Source of the DNA: a virus
Reading direction: 5' to 3' (one strand)
Length of the DNA stretch: 44,016 bases
Virus record (IMG/VR): IMGVR_UViG_3300038393_001495
Location: 1 to 44,016 of that record
Both the position numbers and the translations under genes were made by a program. Under the pieces are notes generated by a model. The model worked only from the letters and a program-made list of their open reading frames with translations, did no database searches and had not been told where the DNA came from. Shown here piece after piece: positions 1,723-43,216 of the stretch. The stretch's first letter is position 1; each line of letters begins with the position of its first letter.

Positions 1723-2058
1723 CTACTCCTCGTACGGACGGAGGGCCTCTTCGAGGTGGCGCCGGACGGCGGTCGCGTGGAGGGTCGCCGTGCGGAGGGC
1801 TCGCTCGGAGGCCAGGACGTTTACACGGAGCGCGAGGCGCTGTCCGTCGAGGGCGATGTCCTCGGTCGGGGCGCTCGGCTTGTGCCCGATGCCCTTGCGC
1901 TCCGCGGGGACGGTCGTCCGGGGCGGGGCGGTCCACTGGACCTCGCGGGCGCGGGCGAGGAGGTCGCCGATGGCGGCGGTCTCTCCAGCGAAGCGCGCGA
2001 GGAGGGCCTCGGCTTCGAGGGCTTCGAGGTCGTCGGTCGTGAGGGCGGGCTCGGTCAT
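1723..2058 (-). CDS. hypothetical protein (111 aa)
   Basis: ATG 2058, TAG 1723. Preceded by promoter-like box 2089-2122 and an AGAGGA RBS. Confidence 0.7.
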   Translation of the reverse strand: MTEPALTTDDLEALEAEALLARFAGETAAIGDLLARAREVQWTAPPRTTVPAERKGIGHKPSAPTEDIALDGQRLALRVNVLASERALRTATLHATAVRRHLEEALRPYEE

Positions 2059-2088
2059 GCGGATGTCCTCTCGGTCGGGTGCTGTGAC

Positions 2089-2122
2089 GGAGGAATCCGC
2101 CAGAGGCCCGGGGGCTGCTCAC
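2089..2122 (-). promoter_or_regulatory. phage-specific promoter-like box PM1
   Basis: Minus strand: GTGAGCAGC-CCCCGGGCCT-CTGGCGGATTCCTCC. It ends 30 nt upstream of ATG 2058 and follows hairpin 2156-2199. Confidence 0.6.
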
Positions 2123-2155
2123 GGATGCGCGCTCGAGTTTTTCGCCGGGTACGCG

Positions 2156-2199
2156 AAAGGCCCCCGTCCCGACCTGTAGGTCTGTGAACGGGGGCCCTT
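2156..2199 (-). terminator. GC-rich hairpin downstream of the DNA polymerase gene
   Basis: Arms aaaggcccccgt / acgggggccctt (one mismatch), immediately after stop 2204. Confidence 0.55.
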
Positions 2200-2203
2200 C
2201 TGC

Positions 2204-4120
2204 TCACGCGGCGAGCGGCACGTCCTCCTCGGGCGGGCATCCGTACGCCGAGCCCCACGAGGGACCGGCGACCTCGCCCGTCGAGGAGATGGGCACGCCC
2301 TTGAAGTCGCGCGTCATCGTCTCGCCGATGAGCCGTGCGACCTCCTCGGCGTCCTCCCGGGGCGCCTGCGCCACGAGTTCGTCGTGGACGGGCAGGAGGA
2401 GGCAGTCGCCGAGGCCCTTGTCGAAGAGGCTCACGATGGCCTGCGCGAGGATGTCGCGCGAGAGCGACTGGACCGCGTAGTTCGTGGCCGCGTAGAGGCG
2501 GTCACGGTCGAGCGGGAGGTGCCGCCCGGTCTCCGTGACGACCTCACGGGCGCCGAATTGGGCGCGCGTCTGGAGGCGCTTCCCGTAGCGCTTGATGCCC
2601 GGGAACGAGCGGTCGTAGGCGGCGATGGCCTCCTTGACCTCCGGGAGCGGGGCGCCGGTCTGACGCGAGAGCGTCGTCGCGCCGCCGCCGTAGACCTTGC
2701 CGAAGCCGACGCCCTTTCCCATCTTGCGCTGGCGCTTCGTGAAGTTCGGCCCGTAGAGCATCGACGCCGTGAAGTCGTGCAGGTCGAGCCCGTTCCGAAT
2801 CGCCCGGATCATGGCGGGCTCGGGGGCCAGGGCGGCGAGGACGCGCATCTCGATCTGGTCGTAGTCCGACGAGATGATGAGGTGGCCCGGGTCCGCCGTG
2901 AGCGCGCGCCGGATGGTCCAGTCCGACGACGGGAGTTGCTGGAGCGGCGGGCGCGAGATGGACATGCGCGCCGTCCGCGCCTGAAGCCCGCCGATGAACG
3001 GGTGGAGCCGCCCGTCCGGGTCCATGAGGTCGAGGAAGGCGTCGGCGTACGCAGTCGCCCACTTCTCCGAGCGCTTCGACCGGAGCACGGCGTCGGCGAG
3101 GAGGTTCGGCTTGCGGGCCTCGATGCGGTTCCAATCGCGGTCGAGGTCCGCAAGGGGCATGAGGACTTCCTTGTCCACCTTCAGGCCCGTTTTGGTCCGC
3201 TCGGTCAGCGTCTCGCCCATCGCGACGAGGGAGGCCGAGACCTGTCCCGTCGAGTTCACGTTCTCGACGCCGTAGCGCCGAGCGACGCCGCGGTAGTGCT
3301 CGGCCTCGGCGTGGAGGCGGTCGCGGAGGCGGCGGGTGTAGTCCTCGTCCACGCGGATTCCGCGGCGCTGCATGACCGCGAGGAGGACCGCGAGGTGGTG
3401 CTCGAACTTCGAGAGGTGCGAGACGCCCGCGCCCTTCACGAGCGGCCCGAGCGCGTCGAAGAGGCGCCGAGCGAGGAGCGGGTCGAGGCCGGAGTAGAGG
3501 GTGTAGAGCGGGTGGTAGATGTCCACGTTCGCGAAGCCGAACGGGATGTGCGGGCGCGTCGGGTGACGGCGCTTGAATGCGGCGATGTCGTCGGCGCTCA
3601 CGGTCTTCTGCCACGCGCGCCAGAGGGCCAGGAACACGTCCTTCAGGCCCTCCGAGGTGTCCGGGGCGGACTCGTCCACGTAGACCGCGGAGAGCGGCTT
3701 CAGGGAGAGGCCCGTGCCGCCCTCGTGCTCGCTCCGCGGGTCGAGGAGGTGGGCCATGATGCGCGTGTCAAAGCATCGCGGGCCGAAGTCCTCGACCTTC
3801 ACGCCGAGGTGGCGGTCCACCACGAGCCAGTCGAAGGGCGCGTTGTGCGCCGTGAACATGCGGGGCTGGAGGAGGGCCTCCCGGGCGATGCCGCCGAAGA
3901 GGTCCGCGCGGAGGTTGAACGCGAGGTCGCGGTTGCCGAATTGGAGCATCCGGAGGCGGTGGTCGGCCTTGAAGATGTCGAGGTCCGTCGTCTCAGTGTC
4001 GAAGCCGAGAACCTTGTCGTCGCGGGCGAGGAACTCCTCGAAGGCGCCGAGGTCGCTCGGGCGCTCCGGGGTCAGGATGCGGCACTCGTCGCCGCCGAGG
4101 GTGTAGGTCTGTTCGATCAT
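2204..4120 (-). CDS. family A DNA polymerase with 3'-5' exonuclease domain (638 aa)
   Basis: FDTETTDL exo motif. DYDQIEMRVLA (motif A), KMGKGVGFGKVYGGG (motif B), PVHDELV (motif C). Confidence 0.9.
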   Translation of the reverse strand: MIEQTYTLGGDECRILTPERPSDLGAFEEFLARDDKVLGFDTETTDLDIFKADHRLRMLQFGNRDLAFNLRADLFGGIAREALLQPRMFTAHNAPFDWLVVDRHLGVKVEDFGPRCFDTRIMAHLLDPRSEHEGGTGLSLKPLSAVYVDESAPDTSEGLKDVFLALWRAWQKTVSADDIAAFKRRHPTRPHIPFGFANVDIYHPLYTLYSGLDPLLARRLFDALGPLVKGAGVSHLSKFEHHLAVLLAVMQRRGIRVDEDYTRRLRDRLHAEAEHYRGVARRYGVENVNSTGQVSASLVAMGETLTERTKTGLKVDKEVLMPLADLDRDWNRIEARKPNLLADAVLRSKRSEKWATAYADAFLDLMDPDGRLHPFIGGLQARTARMSISRPPLQQLPSSDWTIRRALTADPGHLIISSDYDQIEMRVLAALAPEPAMIRAIRNGLDLHDFTASMLYGPNFTKRQRKMGKGVGFGKVYGGGATTLSRQTGAPLPEVKEAIAAYDRSFPGIKRYGKRLQTRAQFGAREVVTETGRHLPLDRDRLYAATNYAVQSLSRDILAQAIVSLFDKGLGDCLLLPVHDELVAQAPREDAEEVARLIGETMTRDFKGVPISSTGEVAGPSWGSAYGCPPEEDVPLAA

Positions 4121-4161
4121 GAGGTGGCCTTCGTTGTCGGTCCGGGATGGGGAGGTACGCC

Positions 4162-4196
4162 GAAGCCCCCGAGCGCGAGATGCGGTCGGGGGCCTC
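4162..4196 (-). terminator. GC-rich hairpin (attenuator-like) between the Zn-ribbon gene and the polymerase gene
   Basis: Arms gaagcccccga / tcgggggcctc with one mismatch. Confidence 0.4.
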
Positions 4197-4210
4197 GGGA
4201 GGTGGGGCGT

Positions 4211-4327
4211 TTACACGCCCGTCGCGCACGTCGGGCAGTCGATGTGCTGGTTGTGCGCGAGGTGGCAGACGCCGCACACGGTCTCGCGCGGGAGGAGTTC
4301 CGGGACGGTCTCGATGTCAGCGAACAC
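4211..4327 (-). CDS. small zinc-ribbon-like protein (38 aa, GTG start)
   Basis: VFADIETVPELLPRETVCGVCHLAHNQHIDCPTCATGV contains CxxC-x9-CxxC. A GAAAGG RBS lies 7 nt upstream of GTG 4327. Below the track length cutoff. Confidence 0.45.
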   Translation of the reverse strand: MFADIETVPELLPRETVCGVCHLAHNQHIDCPTCATGV

Positions 4328-6913: not shown

Positions 6914-6932
6914 GTGTAAACGCCGTTTACAT
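6914..6932. promoter_or_regulatory. 19-bp palindrome GTGTAAACG-C-CGTTTACAT (two inverted copies of the dispersed 9-mer)
   Basis: Read directly. It contains the TAA stop (6927-6929) of the upstream gene. Confidence 0.6.
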
Positions 6933-10151: not shown

Positions 10152-10723
10152 TCCTCGACGTTCTCCGCGGTCTCGCGGAGCCACTGTTGAAGCGTGCGCG
10201 TGGAGGCGGCGACGCGGGCGCGGTCCGCCGAGGTGAGGGTGTCGAGGGAGCGCTTGTCGAGGTGCGAGAGGCGCTGCGCGAGCGTGTAGAGCGAGGCCAC
10301 GGTGTCCGAGGCGAGGCGCTCGGCCTCGCGCTTCGTCTTCGGGTTCTGCCGTACGAAGTGACGTTGCTTCGGCGTCTCGGCCATGAGACCGGCGTCCGTG
10401 AGTTCCTCGGCGTTTACACGCTCACGTAATGCATTCCCGACGTGATAGCGAATAGACGCCTTTATCGAGGATTGACCATCGGCAGGAAGGCCGGCCTTTG
10501 AGTAAATGTCCGCGACTATTTGACGATAAGCGAATGAATTGCCTGCCCAATCGGGCATTCCTTCGGGCGTCGTATAGCGCGCGCGGAGTTCTACGAGAAT
10601 GTCCGCGACTCGCCGGAACTCGGGCGAGCGATAGCGCGGCTCCAATCGGAGCGCGGCGCGGAGGTACTTAGCCGCGAGGTTGCGGAGTTCGTCCTCGCCG
10701 AGGAGTTCGAGGTCAGTAGCCAT
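10148..10723 (-). CDS. hypothetical protein in a lower-GC island (191 aa)
   Basis: ATG 10723 (MATDLELL). Region about 10420-10740 is visibly AT-richer. In-frame TTA codon at 10427-10429. No motif recognised. Confidence 0.6.
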   Translation of the reverse strand: MATDLELLGEDELRNLAAKYLRAALRLEPRYRSPEFRRVADILVELRARYTTPEGMPDWAGNSFAYRQIVADIYSKAGLPADGQSSIKASIRYHVGNALRERVNAEELTDAGLMAETPKQRHFVRQNPKTKREAERLASDTVASLYTLAQRLSHLDKRSLDTLTSADRARVAASTRTLQQWLRETAENVED

Positions 10724-10841: not shown

Positions 10842-12974
10842 CTAGCGGACGGGACACGCGCCAGAGGCGCAATCCTCGTCCACGCCGTCCGCCACGAGGC
10901 GCGCGGCTGCGGCCTCGTAATCCGCCGCCGTGATGCGCTCGTAGGGCGCCTGCGGGCGCGAGCCGTCGAGCATGACGGTCGTACCCTTCAGCCCCGGGAG
11001 CGCCGCCGTGAGCGTCTCCACGAGCGACGCGACCGCCTCGGCGGACGGCGGCGGAGGCGTCAGCGCGCCGGAGGCCAGGGCCTCGTCCTGATGCGGCTCG
11101 GCGGGGATGTTGACCGTGAAGGACACGGCGTTGTCCGCCCACGCGCGCTGATAGAGGGCCTGCATCCGGAGGAGGTCCGCGGGCGAGATGTCGCTCTGGC
11201 CCTCCACGAGCGAGCCCGGGAGCCCGAGGGCCTCGACCTGCTCCACGAGGATGTCCTTCGTCGGGTAGGTGACGACGACCGTGTTCCCGCTCGGGTCGTA
11301 CTGATCGGGCTCGACGTGGAAGCCGTCGAACTCGGCCCGCTCCACGATGTCGCGCTCCCGCTCCGAGGTCATCGAGAACCGCACGCGCCGGAGGAAGTGC
11401 GTCGAGTAGATCGGGTGGATGCCCTCGGCGACTCCAGGCATCTTCGCGATGGTGCCCGTCGGGGCGACCGTCGTCACCTTCACGGGCTCCGGCATGCGGA
11501 GGCGGAAGGCGTAGCGGCGGGCCTCCTCGCGGACCACGAGGTAGAGGTCTTCGAGGAGGGCCTCGAAGCCCGGGACGTACGGCGCCGCCGAGTAGCGGAT
11601 GCCCTGCTTCACGAGGAAGCCGTGGACGCCGAGATGCCCGACGCCGATGCGACGGTTCGAGGCGAGGCGCGCGGCCTGCTTCGGGTCGTTTACATCGCCG
11701 TACGTCGCCCGCATGAGGAACCGCGTCATGAGGACGTGCGCCTCCCGGAGGTCCGCCGTGACGGCGAGCCCGCCCGAGGCGAAGGCGTCGAGGTTGACGT
11801 GGCCGAGGTTGCAGTTCTCCCACGCTTCGAGAGCAATCTCGCCACACGGGTTCGTCGCGATGACCTCGCCGACCTCGCCCTCGTTCGAGAGGGAGGAGTT
11901 CCAGAGACCGGGCTCGCCGTTCGTGAGCATCCGCTCGGCGACCTTCTGGAGGATGAGCCACGCCGCCGAGCCCCCGCGGGCCATGTCCGCCGTGAAGTCG
12001 TCGTCCACCTCGACGGAGATGTTCGTCGTCCAGTGCTGCGACGGGTCTTCCTTGCAGGCCAGGAAGTCGAGGACGAACGGGTCGCGCCAGTGAACGATGG
12101 ACATGCGGGCCGAGCGCCGGACGCCGCCCGCCACGACCGCCTCGCCGATGGCGTGGTCAATCGCCATCGCGTCGAGGGGCGTCATCTGCCGAGCCCCGGC
12201 GTAGGTGACATCGAGGCGGAAGCCGTTCTCGCGGTTGCCGTTCATGACCTCGGCGACCTTGTGCAGGAGGCGAGCGAACGGGAGCGGGCCCGACGCCGTG
12301 CCGCCGAACGTGCGGAGCGGGGCGCCCTTGCGCCGGACGCGCGTCATGTCGAAGACGCGGTTCTCGTGCTCGACCGGGGCGTCCGTCATGAAGGTGTCCA
12401 CGAGGTCCACGAGCGCCGCGGCGATGCCCTCGCGCGAGTCCTCGACCGGGAAGGCGCCCGTCCACTCGTGCGAGTAGTCCGTCGAGATGAGGCCCTCGGC
12501 GACCATCGCCTCGTAGTCCGGGTGCGACGGGTCGCACACGACATGCACCTTCAGCGAGCGGCGCGGGGCGCCGTACTTCGCGAGGTGCCGCGAGGAGTAG
12601 TTCGCCCCGACGCCGCCGCCCTCGGCGAGGCGCTGGAAGGTGAACTCGAAGTGCTCCGAGAGCGACTCGCCCCATCCGGCGACGTGGCAGTTGAAGAGGT
12701 ATTGACGCCCCTTCACGCCGGACGCCCAGAGGTGGCGCCCGCCCGGGAGGAGGCGGAAGTCGAGCATGTAGTCGAAGAGGCGCGCGTACTCCTCGTGGAC
12801 CTCGCGGGACCACGAGGAGCGCGGCCCGTGGACGAGGGAGAGGTTGCCCTCGGCGACGCGGGCGACGGTCTCGGGCCACGTCTCCAGCGAGCCGTCCGGC
12901 TTCGGGCGCGAGTAGGTGCGGGTGTAAACGGTCTCGCCGGTCGGGCCGAACGGGACGGAGGGAGCGGAGGTCAT
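10842..12974 (-). CDS. nrdJ: class II (adenosylcobalamin-dependent) ribonucleotide reductase (710 aa)
   Basis: Active-site-like NPCGEIALEAWENCNLGHVNL and a C-terminal Cys pair CASGACPVR. ATG 12974 chosen over TTG 12995. Confidence 0.85.
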   Translation of the reverse strand: MTSAPSVPFGPTGETVYTRTYSRPKPDGSLETWPETVARVAEGNLSLVHGPRSSWSREVHEEYARLFDYMLDFRLLPGGRHLWASGVKGRQYLFNCHVAGWGESLSEHFEFTFQRLAEGGGVGANYSSRHLAKYGAPRRSLKVHVVCDPSHPDYEAMVAEGLISTDYSHEWTGAFPVEDSREGIAAALVDLVDTFMTDAPVEHENRVFDMTRVRRKGAPLRTFGGTASGPLPFARLLHKVAEVMNGNRENGFRLDVTYAGARQMTPLDAMAIDHAIGEAVVAGGVRRSARMSIVHWRDPFVLDFLACKEDPSQHWTTNISVEVDDDFTADMARGGSAAWLILQKVAERMLTNGEPGLWNSSLSNEGEVGEVIATNPCGEIALEAWENCNLGHVNLDAFASGGLAVTADLREAHVLMTRFLMRATYGDVNDPKQAARLASNRRIGVGHLGVHGFLVKQGIRYSAAPYVPGFEALLEDLYLVVREEARRYAFRLRMPEPVKVTTVAPTGTIAKMPGVAEGIHPIYSTHFLRRVRFSMTSERERDIVERAEFDGFHVEPDQYDPSGNTVVVTYPTKDILVEQVEALGLPGSLVEGQSDISPADLLRMQALYQRAWADNAVSFTVNIPAEPHQDEALASGALTPPPPSAEAVASLVETLTAALPGLKGTTVMLDGSRPQAPYERITAADYEAAAARLVADGVDEDCASGACPVR

Positions 12975-14789: not shown

Positions 14790-14819
14790 AGTGTAAACGC
14801 GCCGTGGCACGCTTCGCAA
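14790..14819 (-). promoter_or_regulatory. host-type early promoter PE-14.8 (TTGCGA-N18-TACACT)
   Basis: Minus strand: TTGCGA AGCGTGCCACGGCGCGTT TACACT. Member of a five-copy family. Confidence 0.65.
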
Positions 14820-15760: not shown

Positions 15761-16776
15761 CGAGTGGCCTTCAGGTGGAGGGTGCGGAGGAGGAACGGGC
15801 CCGGGCTCGTGGCCCACGGCGTCACGCCGAGGCGCTTGTACGCGGCCCGGGTGGCGGCGGCGGTCGCCGTGCCGAAGTAGCGGTCCGCGGCCCGGGCGGC
15901 GGTCAGCCCGTAGCGGTTCGCCGTCTTCGCGCCGAGGTAGGTCCGGAGGGCGCGCTCGTAGGTGAGGACGCTCGCGCCGGAACGCCCGACGCGGAGGCTC
16001 GGGGTGTAAACGCTCGGGCTCGAGTTCGGCTTCGGCTTCGGCGTCACGACGGGGCGCGGCTTCGGCTTCGGCTTCGGAGCGGGCTTCGGCTTCGCGACGG
16101 TCGGCTTCGGGCTCGGCTTCGGCGCCGGAGCGGAGTAGCCGCTCGGGGGCGCCGTGACGACCGTCCCGGGCTGGACCACGTTCGCGTCCGGGATGCGGTT
16201 CCACGAGGCGAGCGCGGCGACCGAGACGCCGAGGGCGACCGCGGCCTTGCCGAGCGTGCCGCCCTTCGGGATGGTGAACGTCCGATGCTTCGCGGGCGCC
16301 GGGGCCTTCACGTCGAGACGGTTGTCGAACGCGCGGAGGATTGCGGCGGCGGTCGATCGGTTCCACGAGTCGCGGTCCGCGTGTCCAGCGAGGCCGGTCT
16401 CGCCGTCGCGGAACTGCTCGACCTGCGCCACGGCGAGCGGAGCCAGGTCGGGACAGTCGGGGTCGATGAGGTGGACGTGGTGGTTCCCGTCCCACCATCG
16501 CCCGAAGGTGAGGAGGAGGACGGAGCGGCCCGTGTTCACGAGCATGTGGAAGTCGGCGAGCGAGAGTCCGTCGGCCTCGATGTCGTAGACGCCGCCGAGG
16601 TCGTGCGTGCCCTTCGAGGCGTCGAGCCCCGGCGAGTAGCACCCTTGGATGGGCCGGAGGTAGACGGCGCCGGTCAGCGCCGCCCACGCCTTCAACTTCG
16701 GGACGGAGTGGACGCACACTCGGCGCCCGCGCCACGTCGTCGTCGCGCATCGGGGTCGGGAGGTGGAACCGCCCAT
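15757..16776 (-). CDS. endolysin: peptidase domain + LysM + Pro/Lys linker + PG-binding domain (339 aa)
   Basis: SKGTHDLGGVYDIEADG peptidase-like motif. LysM-like FTIPKGGTLGKAAVALGVSVAALASWN. PKP repeats. AGGAGG RBS before ATG 16776. Confidence 0.75.
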   Translation of the reverse strand: MGGSTSRPRCATTTWRGRRVCVHSVPKLKAWAALTGAVYLRPIQGCYSPGLDASKGTHDLGGVYDIEADGLSLADFHMLVNTGRSVLLLTFGRWWDGNHHVHLIDPDCPDLAPLAVAQVEQFRDGETGLAGHADRDSWNRSTAAAILRAFDNRLDVKAPAPAKHRTFTIPKGGTLGKAAVALGVSVAALASWNRIPDANVVQPGTVVTAPPSGYSAPAPKPSPKPTVAKPKPAPKPKPKPRPVVTPKPKPNSSPSVYTPSLRVGRSGASVLTYERALRTYLGAKTANRYGLTAARAADRYFGTATAAATRAAYKRLGVTPWATSPGPFLLRTLHLKATR

Positions 16777-25137: not shown

Positions 25138-25218
25138 GCGTTTACATCCTTCTCTCGCCGTGGGTAGCCGTGAGAGAGGCGGGAGCGCCACGGCTAAGCG
25201 CTCCCGCCTCTAGGTGGG

Positions 25219-27663: not shown

Positions 27664-27705
27664 AGGGCCCGGAGCGTCACACGAGGCGTTTACACTCCGG
27701 GCCCT
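27664..27705 (-). terminator. hairpin terminator after the major capsid gene
   Basis: Perfect 11-bp stem agggcccggag / ctccgggccct. The 20-nt loop contains one copy of the dispersed 9-mer. Confidence 0.65.
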
Positions 27706-30310: not shown

Positions 30311-31751
30311 CGCGGCCTCCGTTCGGGTTCTGCGGGTTCTGCGTCGCCGTCATGGCCGCGCGGAGCATCTGCTCGCCCTGCCACGCCACGCGGTCCTGCT
30401 CCAGCCGGAGCCGCTCCACGGGCGAGTAGCCGAGGCGCTTCAGCACCACGTCGGAGTTCGGCGGGACCGCCTCGGCGGCGACCTGCTTCGAGATGGAGTC
30501 CGACGCCTGCGAGGCGTTGAACATCTCCGGGGCCAGCCAGTCCACGGACAGGCGCTCGGCGCCCTTCGGGAGGTCGAGGCCAGGACGAGACAGGCGGAGC
30601 GCGAGGTGCGCGACCTTGCGGAGGTCCGGTGTGAAGCGAGCCATGTCGAGGCGCGCTCGCCGGTCGAGGCGACCCTCGGCGACCTGCCCGCCCTCGGCGC
30701 TCACGGGGTTGCCCTCCGTGTAGAGGCCGAGGTACTGCGGCGGGAGGGCGAGTTCGCCCGACGCCTGCGCGCCGTACATCTCCACGACCTTCGTGTAAAC
30801 GCTCGGGTCGTACGCCTGCATCTGCTTGATGTCCGGGAGGTTCCCGTCCTCGTCGCGCTCCAGCGCGAGGACCGCGTGGAGGTAGACCTCCCACGCCGTC
30901 TTCCGCGAGCCGTCCGGGTTGATGAAGTCGCTCTCGGCGGCGCCGAGGATGGCCTTCTGCGGGACGGAGTAGAACTCGCGAGCGACCTCCAGGCCCAGGA
31001 GCGTGCGCGACGCCCCTTGGATGATGGCGCGGAGCGCGGGCGTGATGGCCGAGCGGCCCTGCCGAGCGCCGGAGAGCGGCGCGTGCGCGAGGCGGACGAC
31101 CGGCACCACGTCGAGGTCGTGCGGCTCCCGGGCGTCGAGGTGCCACTCCGAGCCGTCCTGCCCGTCGTGCGACATGCGGAGCGTCTTCCGGGGCATCTGG
31201 AGGACGGCCTTCGTGGACTTGCCCTCGGCGTAGACCGAGAGGACGTGACGCGGCGAGCGCGTCCGCACGTCCCACTCGACGGCGGTGTTCATCGGCGAAT
31301 CCGCCGTGATGAGAGGCATCTCCGGGTCGTCGCCCGTGCCGACCGTGATGTAGCCGCGCCCGAGCGAGTAGGCGTCCGTGAGCGCCATCGAGAGTTCGGC
31401 CTCGAAGCCGTTCCCGTCCATGATGGAGGCGAGCGTCTCGTCGGCCTCGGTCTGACCGGCGAAGCGGAAGGACTCGAAGCGCATCCGCTCGACCCGCGGG
31501 TCCACGGCGAGACCGCCCCAACCGAGCACGGTGTTGATGAACTCCAGAGACTCCGGGATGGAGATGCGGAGGTTCCTCACGACGTACTCGCCGAGGTAGT
31601 ACGCCTCGGAGAGTTGCAGGTCGGCGAGGGAGTCCTCGCGCGCCGTGCGGAGGCGCTCGAAGACCTCCCGCTCGTCCTCGTGGAGAACAGTGTCCGGGAG
31701 CATCGGCGACGATGGGACGTTGTAGGGCGCGAGGGCGCCGACGGTGCTCAC
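30249..31751 (-). CDS. portal protein (500 aa, GTG start)
   Basis: Size and position directly after terL. AGGAGG lies 7 nt before GTG 31751. Confidence 0.8.
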   Translation of the reverse strand: MSTVGALAPYNVPSSPMLPDTVLHEDEREVFERLRTAREDSLADLQLSEAYYLGEYVVRNLRISIPESLEFINTVLGWGGLAVDPRVERMRFESFRFAGQTEADETLASIMDGNGFEAELSMALTDAYSLGRGYITVGTGDDPEMPLITADSPMNTAVEWDVRTRSPRHVLSVYAEGKSTKAVLQMPRKTLRMSHDGQDGSEWHLDAREPHDLDVVPVVRLAHAPLSGARQGRSAITPALRAIIQGASRTLLGLEVAREFYSVPQKAILGAAESDFINPDGSRKTAWEVYLHAVLALERDEDGNLPDIKQMQAYDPSVYTKVVEMYGAQASGELALPPQYLGLYTEGNPVSAEGGQVAEGRLDRRARLDMARFTPDLRKVAHLALRLSRPGLDLPKGAERLSVDWLAPEMFNASQASDSISKQVAAEAVPPNSDVVLKRLGYSPVERLRLEQDRVAWQGEQMLRAAMTATQNPQNPNGGRDGSNRDAGPDGGGKPDGGDA

Positions 31752-31768: not shown

Positions 31769-33550
31769 TCAGAGCGCGACCACGCGCCCTCGTGAGGCGC
31801 CGGTCTTCGCGTGCTTGTTGTTGTAGAGGCGCCAGAGCATCCGGGCGCCGACGGCGGCGACCGCGAGGTCGATCTTCCGAGCGCTCTCGCGGTGTTCCTT
31901 CATGAGGCCGATGCCGTACTTCCCGGGCGCGCGGCGCGCGTTCTTCACGTGCGCGCGGAGGGCTCGGGAGGCGTCATGGGCCAGGACTCCGGCGTCCACG
32001 TCCTCCACGAATCGCTCTGCGGCGGCGGTGAACTCGGCCTGCCTCGTCGGCGAGCGCATGTCCCAATTGACGGAGTGCTGCTTGTCGCCGGTCTTCGTCG
32101 CCCACAACTTCAGGCGGCGTTTGTAGAGGCGGTGCCACTCGTCCACGAGGGCTTCCCAATAGCGCTCGCCGCTCTCGTCGTCGCGGGTGTCGGACGGGTC
32201 GGCGAAGAACGCGACCGGGCGATAGACCTCGAAGACCTCGGCGACGCGGGCGTTTACACTCGCGCGGTCCACGCGCCACGGGCCCATCGTCTTCTCGTCG
32301 TAGCCCGGGGGCTTCTGCCAGACGCCGAGTTGGAAGACCTTCCCGTCCTTCGCGCGGCACGCCACGAGGGCGGTCGCGTCGTCGGACTTCGAGCCGTCGA
32401 AGAACACGAGGATGGTCTCGCCCGCGGCGAGTTCCTCACGGACGCCGAGGGCGTCGAACTTCTGCGGGTGGACCCAAGCGTCCTCCGCCGCGACGATCTG
32501 GTTGTACCAGAATCGCCGGGAGCGGCTCGGCGGGTTGCGTCGGTCGGCGATGGACTTCGCGATTCGCTTCACGTTCAGCCACACGGAGTCGCCACGGACA
32601 GAGGCGATCACGTCCGGCGCGGCCTCCAGCGTGAGGGGCGCGTTCGGCGGGGCCTCCAGCGAGTCGTACAGGAGGCCCGCGTCCACGGCGCGCCCGTCGA
32701 GGACCGCCTCGGCCTGCTCGCGGTCGCGCTCGGCCACGGAGTCGTGACCGGGCTCGTAGGCGTTCGTGATGCGGAGGGAGCGCGCGGCGCCGCCCTCGGA
32801 CTTCGAGGCGTTTCGCTCGATGACATCGGCCATCTCGTGCCCGGAGTTGTTCGCGAGCCAGTGGTGCGTCTCGTTCAGGAGGACGAACGAGGCGCGGGCG
32901 CCTTCGAGCGTCGTCGGCGACGAGGTGACCGCCTGCATGAGGGCCTGACCGTGGAGACCGTGGACGGTCTCCTTCTGGACCACGAGGTCGTAATCGGCCT
33001 TCGCGCGGTCGGAGATGAGGCGCGGGAGGAGGCGCATCGTGTTCTTGGTCTGTTCGAGCGACACGGCGGCGACTTGGACCCACGGCTCCGCGGCGGGCTC
33101 GCCGACGGGCTGCCCGTCCACCATGTCGCCGACGCGGCACGGGCCCGCGAGTTCAAACGTCGCGATGCCAGCGCCGAGCGGGTCTTTGCCGTGGCCCTTC
33201 AGCCTTTGGAACACGCCGTCCGAGTAGAGGAACTCGCCGGAGTCGTTCACGGCGTACCACCACAGGAGGAAGCGCGCTTGCTCCTCGGTCCAGACCCACG
33301 GCGTCTCGCGGTTCTTCTGGAGGTATGCGCCCGTCCAGGCGAGCATCTGCCAGCCGAGCGTCCGCTCCGGTAGGAGCCAGTGCTCGCCGTCGGTCTGCCA
33401 CGTCGGGCCGAGGAAGACGGGCGGGTACGGAAGTTCGCGGCGCTCGACCTTCGCGTAGGCGCGGCGCCGGTAGAACTCCTCGGCGGCGTCCATCTCGGCG
33501 CGGACGAAGGGGTCGATGTCCGTCGTGACGACGGAGAGAGACCGGGCCAT
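31769..33550 (-). CDS. terL: terminase large subunit (593 aa)
   Basis: Size, position, and acidic nuclease-type C-terminal half. ATG 33550 overlaps the terS stop by 1 nt (TGATG). Confidence 0.8.
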   Translation of the reverse strand: MARSLSVVTTDIDPFVRAEMDAAEEFYRRRAYAKVERRELPYPPVFLGPTWQTDGEHWLLPERTLGWQMLAWTGAYLQKNRETPWVWTEEQARFLLWWYAVNDSGEFLYSDGVFQRLKGHGKDPLGAGIATFELAGPCRVGDMVDGQPVGEPAAEPWVQVAAVSLEQTKNTMRLLPRLISDRAKADYDLVVQKETVHGLHGQALMQAVTSSPTTLEGARASFVLLNETHHWLANNSGHEMADVIERNASKSEGGAARSLRITNAYEPGHDSVAERDREQAEAVLDGRAVDAGLLYDSLEAPPNAPLTLEAAPDVIASVRGDSVWLNVKRIAKSIADRRNPPSRSRRFWYNQIVAAEDAWVHPQKFDALGVREELAAGETILVFFDGSKSDDATALVACRAKDGKVFQLGVWQKPPGYDEKTMGPWRVDRASVNARVAEVFEVYRPVAFFADPSDTRDDESGERYWEALVDEWHRLYKRRLKLWATKTGDKQHSVNWDMRSPTRQAEFTAAAERFVEDVDAGVLAHDASRALRAHVKNARRAPGKYGIGLMKEHRESARKIDLAVAAVGARMLWRLYNNKHAKTGASRGRVVAL

Positions 33551-35045: not shown

Positions 35046-35239
35046 GGAGGGTTCCTTCATCGGCGAGCCGCGAGTCGGCCCGCGGGTACGACAAAGCCCG
35101 CCCCTGCTCGACGCCTCGACCGCGGAGAGGAGGACGCGGGAGACGGAGCGGGGGCGGGCTGAACCTCCCTGCAAGCCCACGAGGGGCTGCCGCCGATACA
35201 TCCGTCCGGGAGAGAGACGGGGCGCGTTTACACGATGGG

Positions 35240-37847: not shown

Positions 37848-37877
37848 AGTGTAAACGCGCGGTGGCACGGCGCACAA
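37848..37877 (-). promoter_or_regulatory. host-type early promoter PE-37.8 (TTGTGC-N18-TACACT)
   Basis: Minus strand: TTGTGC GCCGTGCCACCGCGCGTT TACACT. Confidence 0.6.
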
Positions 37878-39677: not shown

Positions 39678-39715
39678 CGTTAGGGGCGGGACTTCTGGAA
39701 ACTCCGCCCCTAACG
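39678..39715. other. perfect 12-bp inverted repeat with 14-bp centre; candidate attP core (or hairpin terminator)
   Basis: cgttaggggcgg-gacttctggaaact-ccgcccctaacg, 23 nt upstream of the int ATG. Confidence 0.4.
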
Positions 39716-39720
39716 TGAAC

Positions 39721-39747
39721 CGCCCCCGAGCGGTCCATCCTCGGGCG
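39721..39747 (-). terminator. GC-rich hairpin after the membrane-protein gene
   Basis: Arms cgcccccgag / ctcgggcg with a 2-nt bulge. Confidence 0.4.
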
Positions 39748-39757
39748 TTTGTGCAGG

Positions 39758-40405
39758 TCAGCGGCCCACGGTCGCCCGCACGTCGCCGACGACCGGGAGC
39801 CGCACGTCCACGGCGACGCCAGGGCGAGAGGCCGAAGGCGTCGGGCGCGGGGCCGGGACGCCGGTCCGCGCCGGGGCCTCGCGTACGGCGCTCGTGGCAC
39901 GCTCCGGGGCCGGAGCGGGCAGGGCCGGGGTCGAGGCAGGGGCGGGCGTCGTCGGCGCCGGAGAGAGGCGCGTAGCGGCGCGGGACGCGAGGGGCGCGAG
40001 GCGCGGCGCGAGCACCTCCACGAGCGGCGGGCCCTCGACGGGCTCCGAGCCCGGGCCCGTGATGGCGCGGACGGTGTTGCCGCGCACGTGGACCGTCCGC
40101 CCGTCGGTCGTCTGGTAGTCCACCTCCGCGACGGCGAGGTCCGGCGCTCGGTAGAGGAGCATCCCGCCGACGAGGGCGACTGCGGCGGCGACGCCGAGGA
40201 GGCGGAGGACGCGCTTCGCCTTCGCGCCGGGAGAGACGACGCGGGCCTCGAAGCCGTCCGGCGTCGTGTAAACGCGGTAGGTCCGCGGGTTGTCGAACTG
40301 AACCGTGATGGCACGGGAGGCGCGGAGCGACTCGATGGTCTCCTCCGGGAGGAGGTCGAGGTCGAGGAATGCGAGGGCGCCGGATGGAACATCAATCGTG
40401 GTCAT
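39758..40405 (-). CDS. membrane protein with Pro/Ala-rich C-terminal region (215 aa)
   Basis: ATG 40405 (MTTIDVPSG). Central hydrophobic segment VLRLLGVAAAVALVGGMLLY. Co-oriented with and upstream of int. Confidence 0.65.
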   Translation of the reverse strand: MTTIDVPSGALAFLDLDLLPEETIESLRASRAITVQFDNPRTYRVYTTPDGFEARVVSPGAKAKRVLRLLGVAAAVALVGGMLLYRAPDLAVAEVDYQTTDGRTVHVRGNTVRAITGPGSEPVEGPPLVEVLAPRLAPLASRAATRLSPAPTTPAPASTPALPAPAPERATSAVREAPARTGVPAPRPTPSASRPGVAVDVRLPVVGDVRATVGR

Positions 40406-41600: not shown

Positions 41601-41630
41601 AGTGTAAACGCCTCGTGGCACGGTGCGCAA
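41601..41630 (-). promoter_or_regulatory. host-type early promoter PE-41.6 (TTGCGC-N18-TACACT)
   Basis: Minus strand: TTGCGC ACCGTGCCACGAGGCGTT TACACT. Confidence 0.6.
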
Positions 41631-41676: not shown

Positions 41677-42270
41677 TCAGGCCCGCTCCATCCGCTCGTC
41701 GCAGCACGGGCACTTCGGCTCGCCGTAGGCGTCGAGCCACTTCGCCGTCGTGCGAACGATGTAGCCCGTCTCGGGGCACTGGACCTTCAGCATCCGCGTG
41801 CCCTGCTTCGGCTCGCCCGCCTTGCCCGCCGCGGTCACGAGGGCGGCGTGCGGGTAGTCGCCGAGGCGGTCCGCCACGAGGCCCGAGAGCGTCGCCTTCA
41901 GGTCGTCGCCCGCGACGGTCGCCGTCATCGCGCCAGTGAGGCCGATGGCCTTCGCCATCTTCGCGAAGGGGCCCTTGTGCCCGTTCTGGCAGTCATCGAC
42001 CGCGTGGATGAGTTCGTGGGCCAGGACATCGAGCACGCGGGCGGCGTCGTCCAGCACGGGCGAGATGAAGAGGTTCGCCACGCGGTCCTTCGCGGCGCCC
42101 GTGCTCCAGCACTGCCCGATGACGTTGTTCTTCGAGCCGCGGCCCCCGGGCCACCCGACCGAGACGCGGACGGCGGGAAGCGTGATGTCGGCGGGGGCGA
42201 AGACGACCTCGCCGAGCGCCTCGACGGCGGCGACGAGCCACTCCTCGCGGGTCTGGAAGTTCGTGCTCAT
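41677..42270 (-). CDS. SprT-like zinc metalloprotease-domain protein with C-terminal zinc ribbon (197 aa)
   Basis: HELIHAVD (HExxH) and C-terminal CPETGY...CPCC. ATG 42270 behind PE-42.3. Confidence 0.6.
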   Translation of the reverse strand: MSTNFQTREEWLVAAVEALGEVVFAPADITLPAVRVSVGWPGGRGSKNNVIGQCWSTGAAKDRVANLFISPVLDDAARVLDVLAHELIHAVDDCQNGHKGPFAKMAKAIGLTGAMTATVAGDDLKATLSGLVADRLGDYPHAALVTAAGKAGEPKQGTRMLKVQCPETGYIVRTTAKWLDAYGEPKCPCCDERMERA

Positions 42271-42318
42271 GGTGGGCCTCCTCTGGCCTCGTGGCCCGCG
42301 GTTGGGGCCGATGACAGG

Positions 42319-42348
42319 AGTGTAAACGCACCGTGGCACGGTACGCAA
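42319..42348 (-). promoter_or_regulatory. host-type early promoter PE-42.3 (TTGCGT-N18-TACACT)
   Basis: Minus strand: TTGCGT ACCGTGCCACGGTGCGTT TACACT. Confidence 0.6.
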
Positions 42349-42390
42349 ATCGAGAACGGGCGAGCCTCGGAGAGAGGCCCGCCCGCTCGG

Positions 42391-42480
42391 TCAGGAGCGC
42401 CGGAAGATGGCGCGGAGGATGTCGCCGACGAGCACGCCCATGAGGTCGGGCTCGGGCTCCAGGTCGTCGGTCCAGAGCAT
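42391..42480 (-). CDS. small acidic peptide (29 aa)
   Basis: MLWTDDLEPEPDLMGVLVGDILRAIFRRS. TGATG 1-nt overlap with the upstream stop. Below the track cutoff. Confidence 0.35.
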   Translation of the reverse strand: MLWTDDLEPEPDLMGVLVGDILRAIFRRS

Positions 42481-42776
42481 CACGAGGCGACGACCTCGAC
42501 GGCGAAGAGGTCGCGCCGGAGCGTCCGCTCGCGCCCGTCCTCGAAGCGGACCCGCGCATAGCCCGCGCCGGTCGGACGGCACTTCGCGACGATGCGCTCG
42601 CCGGTCGCGTAGTCCGCGAGGAGTTCGACGGGCTGGCCGCGGTAGGTGAGGCGGGTCACGGGAGCCTCCTCGGGCTTCGGGGCGGGGCGGGGGCGGTCGT
42701 ACTCGGCGGGGCGGCGGAAGATGCCCCACGCGATAGCCGCGATGGTGACGAAGACGTAGACGCCGTGAATGCTCAT
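42480..42776 (-). CDS. membrane-anchored hypothetical protein (98 aa)
   Basis: N-terminal MSIHGVYVFVTIAAIAWGIF hydrophobic segment. Conserved RBS cassette upstream. Confidence 0.6.
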   Translation of the reverse strand: MSIHGVYVFVTIAAIAWGIFRRPAEYDRPRPAPKPEEAPVTRLTYRGQPVELLADYATGERIVAKCRPTGAGYARVRFEDGRERTLRRDLFAVEVVAS

Positions 42777-42866
42777 TGGTGGCCTCCTCTGGCCTAGGTG
42801 TAAACGGGTAGTGGCTCACTCCGAGGGTGGAAGGGAGGGGCCCCGGATGGAGCCCCTCCCGCAAGG

Positions 42867-43139
42867 TCAGCGGCGGCGCTTGCGCGCGTCCGCGTCCGTC
42901 CAGGGCTTGCCCGAGCGGAGGAGCACGGTCACGAGGACCGGGCGACCCTTGCGGCGGGCCACGACGTAGGCGATGCCGCCGCGCACGTAGCGGAGCCCGT
43001 CCTCCGAGGGCTCGATGACCTCGGGCGCGAGGAGCGCCTTCGCGAAGTCCTCCGGCGTCACGTCGCGGCGGGCCATCTTCTCCTCGGCGTGCGCCGAGAT
43101 GGTGACGAAGCGGAGTTCGTCGCGCTCGATGGGGTTCAT
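42867..43139 (-). CDS. DUF4258-like (BrnT-type toxin fold) protein (90 aa)
   Basis: ISAHAEEKMARRDVTPEDF...GGIAYVVARRKGRPVLVTVL resembles the H-A-x-x-R-M-x-x-R-x-(I/V) signature. ATG 43139 behind PE-43.2. Confidence 0.45.
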   Translation of the reverse strand: MNPIERDELRFVTISAHAEEKMARRDVTPEDFAKALLAPEVIEPSEDGLRYVRGGIAYVVARRKGRPVLVTVLLRSGKPWTDADARKRRR

Positions 43140-43186
43140 GTGGGGCCTCCTCTGGCCTCGGCGCCGTGGTTCGGCGCGGTAGGACG

Positions 43187-43216
43187 AGTGTAAACGCGCC
43201 GTGGCACGGCGCGCAA
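43187..43216 (-). promoter_or_regulatory. host-type early promoter PE-43.2 (TTGCGC-N18-TACACT) with perfect 17-bp palindrome in the spacer
   Basis: Minus strand: TTGCGC GCCGTGCCACGGCGCGTT TACACT. Palindrome gcgccgtg-g-cacggcgc at 43196-43212. Confidence 0.65.

Follow-up and report, generated by a model that had tools for sequence, protein, structure and literature searches.

A dispersed 10-bp DNA word in a temperate actinobacterial phage, a candidate site for a SprT-like phage protein

Introduction

The operators and stoperators of the Cluster A mycobacteriophages, described for L5 gp71 and for the TipsytheTRex repressor, consist of a short asymmetric word present in more than 20 copies across the genome of a temperate actinophage (PMC9283540). 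Conserved short motifs that are presumed to be regulatory also occur in Microbacterium phages of Clusters EC, EI, EG and EF, and no repeat was reported for Cluster EH (PMC7302621). According to the literature, phages of the Arthrobacter AZ / Microbacterium EH supergroup form immune lysogens, and no repressor is known for them.

We analyzed a stretch of 44,016 nucleotides, here called the window (IMG/VR virus record IMGVR_UViG_3300038393_001495), which comes from a circularly permuted temperate actinobacterial phage of the AZ/EH supergroup. It encodes a serine integrase, a recombination directionality factor (RDF) and its own sigma factor, as well as a primase/helicase, DNA polymerase I, an exonuclease and RusA. 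Like the Cluster A genomes, it carries more than 20 copies of a short asymmetric word, and this word is also carried by Cluster EH phages.

Results

A sequence-only reading of the window had listed 24 positions for a strongly over-represented word. All 24 carry it, including the stated variants, with C as the last base at 22649 and ATGTAAACG at 6924, 11687, 25139 and 26368. The exact 9-mer GTGTAAACG is found 19 times on the two strands, compared to 0.02 copies expected from dinucleotide shuffles, TGTAAACG 23 times (0.12 expected), and the 10-mer CGTGTAAACG with at most one mismatch 21 times (0.99 expected). The core TGTAAAC occurs 24 times in the window. The CDS set contains 12 of these cores, compared to a mean of 0.59 (maximum of 3 in 1000 shuffles) when synonymous codons were shuffled with the proteins kept, and a mean of 0.19 (maximum of 2) when codons were permuted. 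The word CGTGTAAACG, equivalent to CGTTTACACG, is a 10-bp quasi-palindrome, C-GTTTACAC-G; enrichment is limited to its asymmetric form, and neither GTTTAAAC nor GTGTACAC occurs in the window. A position weight matrix built from 93 sites in five genomes confines the information to C-GTTTACA-C-G.

The copies are fairly evenly spaced, one per 1–3 kb around the whole genome with the structural genes included. Such spacing could be expected of a mark for DNA transactions, such as a priming or loading site for a P4-alpha-like primase/helicase, a site-specific nick as in T5 or LUZ24-like phages, or a Chi-like protection against host nucleases; the phage's own set of replication and recombination genes and the double copy just upstream of the primase/helicase gene would also fit. 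We nevertheless consider this explanation quite improbable. The copies are in mixed orientation (14:10; 8 circular runs, P = 0.086), without polarity with respect to strand or replication, and the motif-less genomes Moss, L007 and L012 have the full set of replication genes. The strict placement of the word within core promoters and, in all lineages, ahead of the SprT-like gene, described below, is unexpected for priming, nick or Chi sites. The double copy itself had been read as a 19-bp palindrome; it does consist of two copies with 9-bp arms around a central C, but it is imperfect, with one mismatch.

All genes of the window are on the − strand, and the copies within them follow one rule for each orientation. 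Those in one orientation are all read xxC GTT TAC ACx (Val-Tyr-Thr), in the genes for ribonucleotide reductase (RNR), endolysin, two tail proteins, the tape measure protein, the portal and a 215-aa protein; those in the other are all read GTA AAC (Val-Asn), in DUF7169, the gene at 10148–10792, RNR, the head-tail connector and the terminase large subunit (TerL). These seven GTT-containing and five GTA-containing cases agree with the earlier description, and only these two frames avoid a stop codon with a single rare codon. Two copies had been credited with supplying TAA stop codons, and this was borne out, the copy at 6924 ending the RusA-like gene 6927–7313 and the copy at 4208 ending a 38-aa ORF that is called in the near-identical contig L001.

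Comparison with relatives 88–94% identical to the window revealed few substitutions at the sites: 2, 0, 0 and 2, compared to 10.8, 6.2, 3.8 and 5.7 expected. Both changes in relative L051 restore weak copies of the window to consensus, these being the tape measure copy at 22649, which is GTGTAAACG in L051, and the chaperone-gene copy at 25139; the weak copy at 11687 is lost from L003/L004. At the 'DVYTP' segment of DNA polymerase, five motif-bearing relatives have GAC GTT TAC ACG, whereas the motif-less L012/L034 use the synonymous GTC TAC ACA. In L009/L045, GTTTACACGC is kept at the corresponding position but is read in a different frame (VFTR). L006/L013 and L011/L014 share a site at which the word stands in opposite orientations; the amino acids encoded there differ, and a TTA codon is used. 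The codon-preserving null models, the shortage of substitutions, and the synonymous, frame-shifted and inverted retention of the word together lend strong support to selection acting on the DNA word itself, as had been proposed.

Five copies (14791, 37849, 41602, 42320 and 43188) sit in a conserved element, TTG(C/T)Gn-N17/18-(T)TACACT, which we infer to be a promoter. The sequence-only reading had taken these copies as the −10 regions of five early promoters. They do supply the TACACT of the element, but a scan with the E. coli-type consensus did not call it, and the promoters are predicted ones. The ATG of gene 14442–14783 is only 6 nt past the TACACT of the element at 14790–14819, so its transcript is probably leaderless, and the spacer of the element at 43187–43216 contains a perfect palindrome, GCGCCGTG-C-CACGGCGC. 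In every lineage the word overlaps the core of an early promoter, with its exact position and orientation varying. It overlaps the predicted −10 in the window and L005, abuts the −10 or lies at the start site in L006, L008, L010, L011, L013, L014, L035, L036, L046, Lizalica and L060, lies within the spacer in Percival (G orientation) and in SuMoo and Caron (T orientation), and overlaps the predicted −35 in UNTPL. Only a subset of the TTGCG-type promoters in each genome bear the word. Because it always lies inside the RNA-polymerase footprint, the word would act as an operator rather than as a promoter element.

Could the word instead be a promoter element of the phage sigma factor, for example a −10-only element like that of T4 late promoters, or an RNA-level leader or translation-start signal? 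The phage encodes a sigma-like protein (633–1466; PHROG sigma factor match of 7e-7, weak region-2 matches), the word provides TACACT at the −10 position in the window, and a few copies sit precisely in the gap separating the ribosome-binding site from the start codon (25139 in the window; 2662, 4848, 12795 and 25015 in UNTPL). Such a role is most improbable, however, as the natural target of the phage sigma is a separate promoter class, GTGAGCAGC-N13-CTGGCGGATTCCTC, which is strictly co-oriented (the 13-mer has 8 exact copies, all on the coding strand) and has an analogue in L012/L034. The sigma gene is also present in motif-less genomes. In addition, copies within genes occur in both orientations, and those within promoters at three or four positions and in both orientations, which a fixed promoter element or a strand-specific RNA signal would not allow.

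The word is not confined to the window phage and is also carried by cultured members of the supergroup. Lizalica has 24 copies, Caron 18, Percival 15, SuMoo 12 and the Streptomyces phage UNTPL 41, and the two orientations are mixed in Caron (5:13), Percival (9:6) and UNTPL (18:23). Phages of Arthrobacter, Microbacterium, Micromonospora, Streptomyces and Actinopolymorpha all have the word in the same form, as would fit a site for a very conserved host protein, a global regulator or nucleoid-associated factor that couples early promoters to host physiology. The sites of the host regulator CtrA, whose boxes reportedly recur in promoter regions of alphaproteobacterial phages, would be a precedent, and no helix-turn-helix (HTH) protein was found in the phage. 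GTGTAAACG corresponds to the left half, together with the central CG, of gal operator OE from E. coli (LacI/GalR type), and the HutC/GntR core reads GTnTAnAC. A host factor, whether nucleoid-associated or regulatory, is nevertheless rather unlikely and is disfavored by the distribution of the word, which tracks a phage gene rather than the host. Among phages of one strain, M. foliorum NRRL B-24224, Percival and SuMoo bear the word but Armstrong and Katzastrophic have 0 copies, each according to its own gene content, and prophage L060 has 6 copies in 12.6 kb of phage DNA but 0 in the adjoining 8 kb of host DNA. A near-identical word precedes the SprT-like gene in cyanobacterial, Rhodobacterales and E. 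coli phages, and these hosts have no single regulator in common.

The gene in question encodes a SprT-like protein (Table 1). No other family occurs in every motif-rich genome while missing from the motif-less Moss, L007 and L012/L034; this association was seen in about 20 genomes with no formal phylogenetic correction and is partly confounded by phylogeny. UNTPL, with its 41 copies, and the window share only DNA polymerase and SprT. Homologues with the C-terminal signature SISKARL (Katzastrophic, Armstrong) come from motif-less genomes, and the homologue of CN1, a phage likewise with no motif, is without the Cys ribbon. L009/L045 have no SprT-like gene within ±10 kb, yet keep 4 in-gene copies. 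A motif copy always precedes the SprT-like gene, including in cyanophage Pan1, roseophage R26L and E. coli phage Bas97, where it is the one-base variant GTTTAAAC; a link of this variant to Thr175→Ser, suggested by Pan1 and R26L, does not hold in Bas97. All 35 homologues compared retain the HExxH motif, R173, T175, W178 and the Cys residues. The AF2 model (pLDDT 87) consists of a zincin domain and a β-β-α ribbon. Weighing against the candidate, a Foldseek search with the protein gave nothing significant (best CapP, E 0.25, then generic zincins and Zn-ribbons), and its match to the Pfam SprT-like family does not reach the cut-off. SprT/Spartan proteases are activated by DNA and are not known to be sequence-specific. 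In Liebe, an N-terminal truncation of the SprT-like gene accompanies clear plaques, according to the literature.

Table 1. Location of the word, of the elements that carry it and of the SprT-like gene in the window.
Coordinates	Strand	Feature
1818..1826	-	Copy GTGTAAACG in DUF7169 gene 1723-2058, GTA AAC (Val-Asn)
4208..4216	-	Copy between primase/helicase and DNA pol I genes, just upstream of G+C hairpin
6914..6932	.	Double copy GTGTAAACG-C-CGTTTACAT, imperfect palindrome, upstream of primase/helicase gene
10411..10419	-	Copy in gene 10148-10792, Val-Asn frame
11687..11695	-	Weak copy ATGTAAACG in ribonucleotide reductase gene, Val-Asn
12922..12930	+	Copy in ribonucleotide reductase gene, coding strand GTT TAC ACC (Val-Tyr-Thr)
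14790..14819	-	Early-type element TTGCGA-N17-TTACACT with copy 14791-14799
16004..16012	+	Copy in endolysin gene 15757-16776, Val-Tyr-Thr
18259..18267	+	Copy in tail protein gene 17772-18869, Val-Tyr-Thr
21093..21101	+	Copy in tail/virion protein gene 18881-21697, Val-Tyr-Thr
22649..22657	+	Weak copy GTGTAAACC in tape measure gene
25139..25147	-	Weak copy ATGTAAACG filling RBS-to-ATG spacer, tail assembly chaperone gene 24649-25137
26368..26376	-	Copy ATGTAAACG in head-tail connector gene 25949-26383, Val-Asn
27687..27695	-	Copy in loop of hairpin GGGCCCGGAG...CTCCGGGCCC, just after major capsid gene 27720-28577
30793..30801	+	Copy in portal gene, Val-Tyr-Thr
32251..32259	-	Copy in terminase large subunit gene, Val-Asn
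35225..35233	-	Copy 3 nt after tRNA-Trp (35236-35310), 25 nt upstream of gene 34773-35201
37848..37877	-	Early-type element TTGTGC-N17-TTACACT with copy 37849-37857, downstream of integrase and 102-bp inverted repeat
40266..40274	+	Copy in 215-aa gene 39758-40405, Val-Tyr-Thr
41601..41630	-	Early-type element TTGCGC-N17-TTACACT with copy 41602-41610
41677..42270	-	SprT-like protein, 197 aa, HExxH zincin domain and C-terminal Cys/His Zn-ribbon; candidate binder
42319..42348	-	Early-type element TTGCGT-N17-TTACACT with copy 42320-42328, directly upstream of SprT-like gene
42798..42806	+	Intergenic copy, 23 nt upstream of gene 42480-42776, without TTGCG −35-like hexamer
43187..43216	-	Early-type element TTGCGC-N17-TTACACT with copy 43188-43196

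Discussion

On balance, and with some reserve, we favor the explanation that CGTGTAAACG is a double-stranded site for one trans-acting phage protein that represses the early promoters. Comparative evidence suggests that the most likely binder is the SprT-like HExxH metalloprotease with its C-terminal Zn-ribbon. The word would be bound at early promoters of the host-sigma type, inside the footprint of RNA polymerase, where in the window it supplies the −10 hexamer; occupancy would shut these promoters, and that of the SprT-like gene as well, resulting in autoregulation. The copies within genes and at gene junctions would hold the same protein along the genome and may serve as stoperator-like roadblocks, silencers or tethers. 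The earlier suggestion that an immunity-type protein binds the word all over the genome is still the best reading; in every lineage the cores of early promoters are overlapped. UNTPL, however, has no annotated integrase, and as this phage is apparently integrase-less the function of the word would not be immunity alone. If the SprT-like protein is indeed the binder, it may bear on the system that confers immunity in the Arthrobacter AZ / Microbacterium EH phages.

Homologues of the candidate carry the annotation SprT-like protease, and the DNA-dependent metalloproteases SprT/Spartan (Wss1) have been summarized in connection with Lizalica gp46 (bioRxiv 10.1101/2025.05.26.655371). Like these enzymes, the candidate has an HExxH zincin core followed by a small C-terminal Zn- or DNA-binding domain. 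Known SprT-type proteases respond to DNA structure, whereas the candidate is proposed to be addressed by sequence; in the literature searched, no SprT-type protease that is addressed by sequence and has genome-wide sites of its own is described.

The analogy with stoperators that had been drawn for the word is only partial. As in Cluster A, an asymmetric word is found at early lytic promoters and also far from promoters, and is conserved among relatives (PMC9283540). The Cluster A stoperator is a 13-mer oriented with transcription, whereas the word here is a 10-bp quasi-palindrome whose orientation is not tied to transcription, and more than half of its copies are within coding sequence. No gp71-like repressor with an HTH or Stoperator domain was found in the phage, the associated gene encoding a SprT-like metalloprotease instead. 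Also unlike in Cluster A, the word is unchanged between relatives that appear heteroimmune and is common to several phage clusters, host orders and an integrase-less phage. The repeats of Microbacterium Clusters EC, EI, EG and EF are likewise conserved, but they are 13–30 bp long, strictly intergenic, co-oriented, cluster-specific and present in 5–12 copies (PMC7302621). CtrA boxes resemble the word in being short sites that recur in promoter regions of many phages; CtrA, however, belongs to the host and its boxes track the host clade, whereas the presence of the word described here goes with a phage gene and varies among phages of a single host strain.

Abundance and Anatomy of the Word

The 7-mer core TGTAAAC is present at every position for which the sequence-only reading had claimed a copy of the word (10-mer CGTGTAAACG), and the window holds 24 copies. 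Exact copies of GTGTAAACG number 19 over both strands compared to 0.02 expected, those of TGTAAACG number 23 compared to 0.12 expected, and CGTGTAAACG with at most one mismatch is found 21 times compared to 0.99 expected. The excess was also found with codon-aware null models, for which the set of coding sequences contains 12 of the 24 cores. A synonymous shuffle performed gene by gene, with the proteins kept, gave a mean of 0.59 cores and a maximum of 3 in 1000 trials, and a codon-permutation null gave a mean of 0.19 and a maximum of 2.

The asymmetric form of the word is the sole enriched form in the window: of the ten possible GTnTAnAC words only GTGTAAAC/GTTTACAC occurs, 20 times, and the perfect palindromes GTTTAAAC and GTGTACAC have no copies there. 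A matrix of 93 sites from five genomes confines the information to C (82%)-G-T-T-T-A-C-A-C (94%)-G (72%), which makes the site a compact 10-mer. Eight of its 10 positions are symmetric, or 10 of 12 if the frequent GC flanks are counted, and two positions are obligatorily asymmetric. The DnaA box TTWTNCACA was considered and rejected; seven of its nine positions agree with TTTACAC, but the ninth base, A, is found in only 12 of the 93 sites.

Thirteen of the 24 window copies lie within coding sequence, and the constant frame described in the sequence-only reading is confirmed, with GTTTACAC on the coding strand always read as C GTT TAC AC (Val-Tyr-Thr) and GTGTAAAC always as GT GTA AAC (Val-Asn). 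To this pattern we add the explanation that the frame used is the cheapest way of hosting the word, because any other frame would bring in a TAA stop or a pair of rare codons (such as TTA, TTT, ACA, TGT, or AAA). Orientations are mixed in the window (14:10) as in Caron (5:13), Percival (9:6), UNTPL (18:23), and Lizalica (17:7), the latter four being cultured phages. A role of the word in DNA transactions is quite improbable in our view, since a Chi- or KOPS-like sequence is polar, and the word has no strand polarity relative to replication or to genome ends and no significant orientation blocks around the circle (runs test P = 0.086).

Selection on the DNA Sequence

Relatives of 88–94% nucleotide identity show a shortage of substitutions at motif bases (2 compared to 10.8 expected, 0 to 6.2, 0 to 3.8, and 2 to 5.7). 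Both changes in the related locus L051 convert weak copies of the window (22649, ...AACC; 25139, ...ACAT) to consensus. The exonuclease motif of the DNA polymerase, D-T-E-T-T-G-L-D-V-Y-T-P, gives a synonymous comparison. Five motif-bearing relatives write its end as GAC GTT TAC ACG, and the motif-less Actinoplanes prophage L012/L034 encodes the same residues as GTC TAC ACA. At this place in the related locus L009/L045 the sequence is GAC GTG TTT ACA CGC, where the word survives in a frame shifted by one base and the residues read V-F-T-R instead. At another homologous position the prophages L006/L013 have GCGTTTACACGC (Arg-Leu-His, with TTA) and L011/L014 have GCGTGTAAACGC (Arg-Val-Asn), the word standing at the same place in opposite orientations. 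The sequence-only reading had argued that selection acts on the DNA itself, and the shortage of substitutions together with the synonymous, frame-shifted, and inverted retention of the word bears this out decisively. The word is an unusually clean case of DNA-level selection prevailing over codon usage and even over protein sequence.

The Window Genome and Its Relatives

A near-identical JGI metagenome contig joins position 44016 to position 1, and the window is therefore a circular permutation of a complete genome. The genome is 71% G+C, and GC3 frame analysis places every gene on the minus strand except for one 66-aa ORF. The virion and lysis genes encode the large terminase subunit, portal, protease, major capsid protein, connector, tail chaperone, tape measure, tail proteins, and endolysin. 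Genes of DNA metabolism encode a dNMP kinase, a class II ribonucleotide reductase, an exonuclease, an HNH endonuclease, a Gp3-like recombination directionality factor, RusA, a D5/P4-type primase-helicase, and DNA polymerase I; a sigma-factor-like protein and a large serine integrase are also encoded. An Rfam scan of the window had a tRNA as its sole match, and in SuMoo and Caron the corresponding place is likewise occupied by tRNA-Trp. A close relative of the window was not found in GenBank. The gene architecture agrees with that of the Arthrobacter Cluster AZ/Microbacterium Cluster EH group, and the relatives by DNA polymerase (60–63% identity) are prophages of Micromonospora, Actinoplanes, and Actinopolymorpha. 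Retrieval based on the portal yielded close relatives only, because the structural module is mosaic.

The 66-aa ORF has a basic N-terminus and lies near the integrase, between genes for proteins of 92 and 215 aa; Percival and Moss likewise have small reverse ORFs (gp76 and gp44) beside the integrase. The 66-aa ORF was rejected as a repressor because it matched no family and the cultured motif-bearing genomes that were compared contained no homologue of it. The window also contains two copies of a 102-bp element with 36-nt inverted arms (83% and 92% complementary) about a 30-nt center, one just downstream of the serine integrase gene and one after the lysis cassette. Both copies lie immediately upstream of a motif-bearing early promoter, and the element could be attP or an origin.

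Features of the window and of one related prophage
Feature	Position	Strand	Remark
Sigma-factor-like gene	633-1466		
TGGCGGATTCCTC copies	2090, 4385, 6832, 8491, 10119, 14356, 35373, 37402		exact 13-mers, all on the minus strand
Gene predicted to be leaderless	14442-14783		
TACACT hexamer and ATG of this gene	14783-14798	-	ATG 6 nt past hexamer
102-bp element	14887-14988, 37897-37998		two copies
tRNA-Trp(cca)	35236-35310	-	between class-II promoter and first structural-operon gene
66-aa ORF	40528-40728	+	
SprT-like gene	41677-42270	-	197-aa product
Spacer palindromes	43197-43213; equivalents 14800-14813, 37858-37871, 41611-41624, 42329-42342		five early promoters
GTGAACAC-N17-GGCGCATAGG elements	L012/L034 2210, 3763, 5009, 6748, 9234, 13560		upstream of primase, polymerase, other genes

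Predicted Early Promoters Carrying the Word

Five window copies fall within a predicted 30-bp promoter element, TTG(C/T)Gn-N17-TTACACT, each element following a terminator-like hairpin and preceding a gene. The claim that the word supplies the -10 region of five early promoters is upheld, the hexamer being TACACT and the promoters being predicted from architecture and conservation; a scan with the E. coli consensus did not call these promoters and had no matches in the early region. Relatives have the same TTGCGn-N17/18-TAnnnT architecture with equivalent overlaps of the word, and their spacer palindromes are lineage-specific. The word lies directly after the -10, at the expected start site, in Lizalica and in the loci L006, L008, L010, L011, L013, L014, L035, L036, L046, and L060. 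The promoter spacer holds it in the G orientation in Percival and in the reverse orientation in both SuMoo and Caron, and in UNTPL it lies over the -35. Within one genome it is found on some TTGCG promoters only. The word thus shifts and flips yet stays inside the RNA-polymerase footprint, and is therefore operator-like rather than a promoter element. The transcript of one window gene is predicted from its sequence to be leaderless, and three promoters of the same kind are found in the related locus L005.

The spacers of the five early promoters contain a palindrome, GCGCCGTG-C-CACGGCGC, with the core CCGTG-C-CACGG. Other palindromes, such as TTGCGTTGAACGTTCAACGCAA and CGTGAGGCGCCTCACG, occupy the same place in relatives, and a spacer palindrome is also present in the motif-less phage Moss and locus L007. 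A second regulator, dimeric and specific to immunity, probably uses the spacer palindrome as its operator.

A different repeat, the 13-mer TGGCGGATTCCTC, has eight exact copies in the window compared to 0.09 expected, all on the coding strand. Most have GTGAGCAGC about 13 nt upstream, and they precede replication, tRNA/structural, and 571-aa genes. Six co-oriented intergenic elements of the form GTGAACAC-N17-GGCGCATAGG in L012/L034 are an analogue of these class-II promoters. TGGCGGATTCCTC is probably a middle/late promoter class of the sigma-factor-like protein, whose gene occurs in motif-less genomes too. That the word itself might be a promoter for the phage sigma factor, or an RNA signal, is highly improbable: it is found in both orientations and at variable positions within promoters, a separate and strictly co-oriented class exists in TGGCGGATTCCTC, and the promoter for the phage sigma was rejected also on the presence of the sigma gene where the word is missing.

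Co-occurrence of the Word with a SprT-like Gene

Copies of the word in the genomes and loci compared
Genome or locus	Copies	Remark
Window	24	
L005, L006, L008, L010, L011, L013, L014, L035, L036, L046	4-8 per 14-22 kb	
L060	6 in 12.6 kb prophage	0 in 8 kb host DNA
SuMoo	12 in 33.5 kb	
Caron	18	
Lizalica	24	
Percival	15	
Streptomyces phage UNTPL	41 in 54.5 kb	lifestyle judged from annotation
Moss	0 in 40 kb	
L007	1	classed motif-less
L012/L034	0	
Streptomyces/Kitasatospora prophages L015-L020, L037-L044	0	
Katzastrophic	0	
Armstrong	0	
Bordetella phage CN1	0	

We profiled gene content against the word by ORF clustering in 14 loci, by tblastn of each window protein against complete GenBank genomes, and by all-ORF families in five complete motif-rich genomes. 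All three profiles agree that the SprT-like gene is the sole gene found in every motif-rich genome and missing from Moss, L007, and L012, an association drawn from about 25 genomes and loci with kinship ignored. UNTPL and the window have only the DNA polymerase and the SprT-like gene in common. The exception to the pairing is L009/L045, with four in-gene copies and no homologue found within the ±10 kb that the collection loci span. A copy of the word stands directly before the SprT-like gene in every motif-rich genome. The motif-less, EB-type Armstrong (L058, record 20000-39928) has a repeated word of its own, TTCTATTGTAGC, with 6 copies compared to about 0.01 expected.

The same distribution bears on whether a host factor reads the word as a global-regulator box, which we consider unlikely. 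Among phages of M. foliorum, Percival and SuMoo are positive and Armstrong and Katzastrophic negative, and the word is found in phages of at least five host genera, so that its presence does not follow the host. The word resembles a LacI/GalR half-site and the HutC/GntR core GTnTAnAC; domains of these types were not found in the scanned phage proteins. A KorSA-type site differs from the word.

In motif-rich genomes the C-terminus of the SprT-like protein reads C-x(3-5)-G-Y-x-x-R-x-T-x-(K/Q/T)-W-L ... C-P-C-(H/C). The three motif-less genomes with a homologue differ here, Katzastrophic and Armstrong having (D/E)-(Y/F)-V-V-S-I-S-K-A-R-L and CN1 lacking the Cys ribbon. Residues H85, E86, and H89 of the HExxH motif, R173, T175, W178, and the cysteines are invariant across 35 homologues. 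An AlphaFold2 model (mean pLDDT 87.4) has an α/β zincin-like domain, a disordered linker, and a C-terminal β-β-α Zn-ribbon. Foldseek gave no match at E ≤ 1e-3; its top-ranked match was CapP, a CBASS regulator protease (E 0.25), and snake-venom zincins and various Zn-ribbons came next. A PDB sequence search gave no match. The Pfam SprT-like match is sub-threshold (E 0.0038; 17.5 bits compared to a cut-off of 25.6), and PHROG 6361, of unknown function, matches at 9e-49. Homologues are encoded by 164 phages in GenBank, and 1463 homologous proteins were counted. GenBank names the homologues SprT-like protease, and a Cluster AZ preprint of 2025 likewise assigns Lizalica gp46 to SprT and reports clear plaques for phage Liebe, in which the gene has an N-terminal truncation, its near-twin Maureen being turbid (bioRxiv 10.1101/2025.05.26.655371). 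In the Micromonospora-type prophages L006, L011, L013, L014, L035, and L046 the SprT-like domain forms the C-terminal part of proteins of 304-524 aa with variable N-terminal extensions.

The pairing extends to phages of other bacteria. Pan1 (cyanophage, L064) and R26L (roseophage, L065), both of genus Nanhaivirus, encode SprT-like homologues, and their most enriched 8-mer is GTTTAAAC, a one-base variant of the word that is also a PmeI site. Within 20 kb they have 5 and 6 sites, compared to about 0.005 expected, and in each phage a site falls in the promoter region of the homologue. The temperate E. coli phage Bas97 (L066) has 4 copies in 24.5 kb (about 0.4 expected), one lying between a perfect TATAAT and the start codon of its homologue. 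The gene is therefore accompanied across three phyla by a GTTTA[C/A]AC site in its promoter, and on these comparisons the module appears older than the actinophages; genome-wide dispersal (15-41 copies) is most developed in high-G+C actinophages. Covariation of Thr175/Ser175 with the C/A base, suggested by Pan1 and R26L, is contradicted by Bas97.

Discussion

On balance we lean toward reading the word as a double-stranded DNA site to which a phage protein binds, and the SprT-like Zn-ribbon protein is the most probable binder; occupancy of the site would shut the early promoters. Binding at these promoters would block initiation, the gene of the binder would be autoregulated through its promoter copy, and the dispersed copies would hold the protein along the genome. 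Passively, the bound protein could be a roadblock or silencer; actively, it could be a tethered protease. The invariance of HExxH speaks for a role of proteolysis, and a possible, if doubtful, extension is that the word serves as a genome-wide address label for a sequence-targeted SprT/Spartan-like protease, the Zn-ribbon docking on CGTGTAAACG and nearby bound proteins being cleaved. Targets might include RNA polymerase/sigma at the early promoters, a repressor on the adjacent palindromic operator, or host silencers (Lsr2, for example) on the phage DNA. If so, silencing or immunity in AZ/EH phages would operate by site-directed proteolysis rather than by a classical repressor, and the SprT-like gene with GTTTA[C/A]AC would be an ancient unit of phages of Actinobacteria, Cyanobacteria, and Proteobacteria. 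Should the SprT-like protein prove to be the reader of the word, it would be the first sequence-addressed Spartan-type protease, within a regulatory module spanning phages of three bacterial phyla.

AZ/EH phages form stable immune lysogens for which a repressor was not found (bioRxiv 10.1101/2025.05.26.655371; Kapinos et al. 2022), the latter study describing the lysogens as stable and homoimmune. The word gives this problem a testable handle, a 10-bp early-promoter site and a single candidate protein linked to a clear-plaque mutant. Cultured pairs are at hand in Lizalica/Powerpuff with A. globiformis, Percival with M. foliorum, UNTPL with S. griseus, and Bas97 with E. coli. Within the library searched we found no paper on the word in a phage context, on SprT together with sites, or on GTTTAAAC in roseophages, and a catalogue of repeats lists them in clusters EC, EF, EG, and EI and none in EH (Jacobs-Sera et al. 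2020; PMC7302621).

The closest known kind is the operator/stoperator of Cluster A mycobacteriophages (PMC9283540), to which the sequence-only reading had likened the word. The analogy holds in that a short asymmetric site is present in more than 20 copies and overlaps predicted early promoters, but fails for intergenic placement, the orientation rule, and a gp71-like repressor. Non-promoter sites of Cluster A lie in short intergenic spaces, whereas more than half of the window copies are intragenic. Their orientation is tied to transcription, whereas that of the word is mixed though nearly all genes are on one strand. The Cluster A repressor is a monomeric gp71-type protein with HTH and Stoperator domains; when proteins of the early and lysogeny regions were searched with Pfam, PHROG, and NCBIfam, no HTH or repressor family came to light. 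Cluster A sites also co-vary with immunity, whereas here the word is constant across clusters and the spacer palindromes vary instead. The system of the word is not a member of the Cluster A stoperator kind and, if the protease reading is true, would be categorically new.
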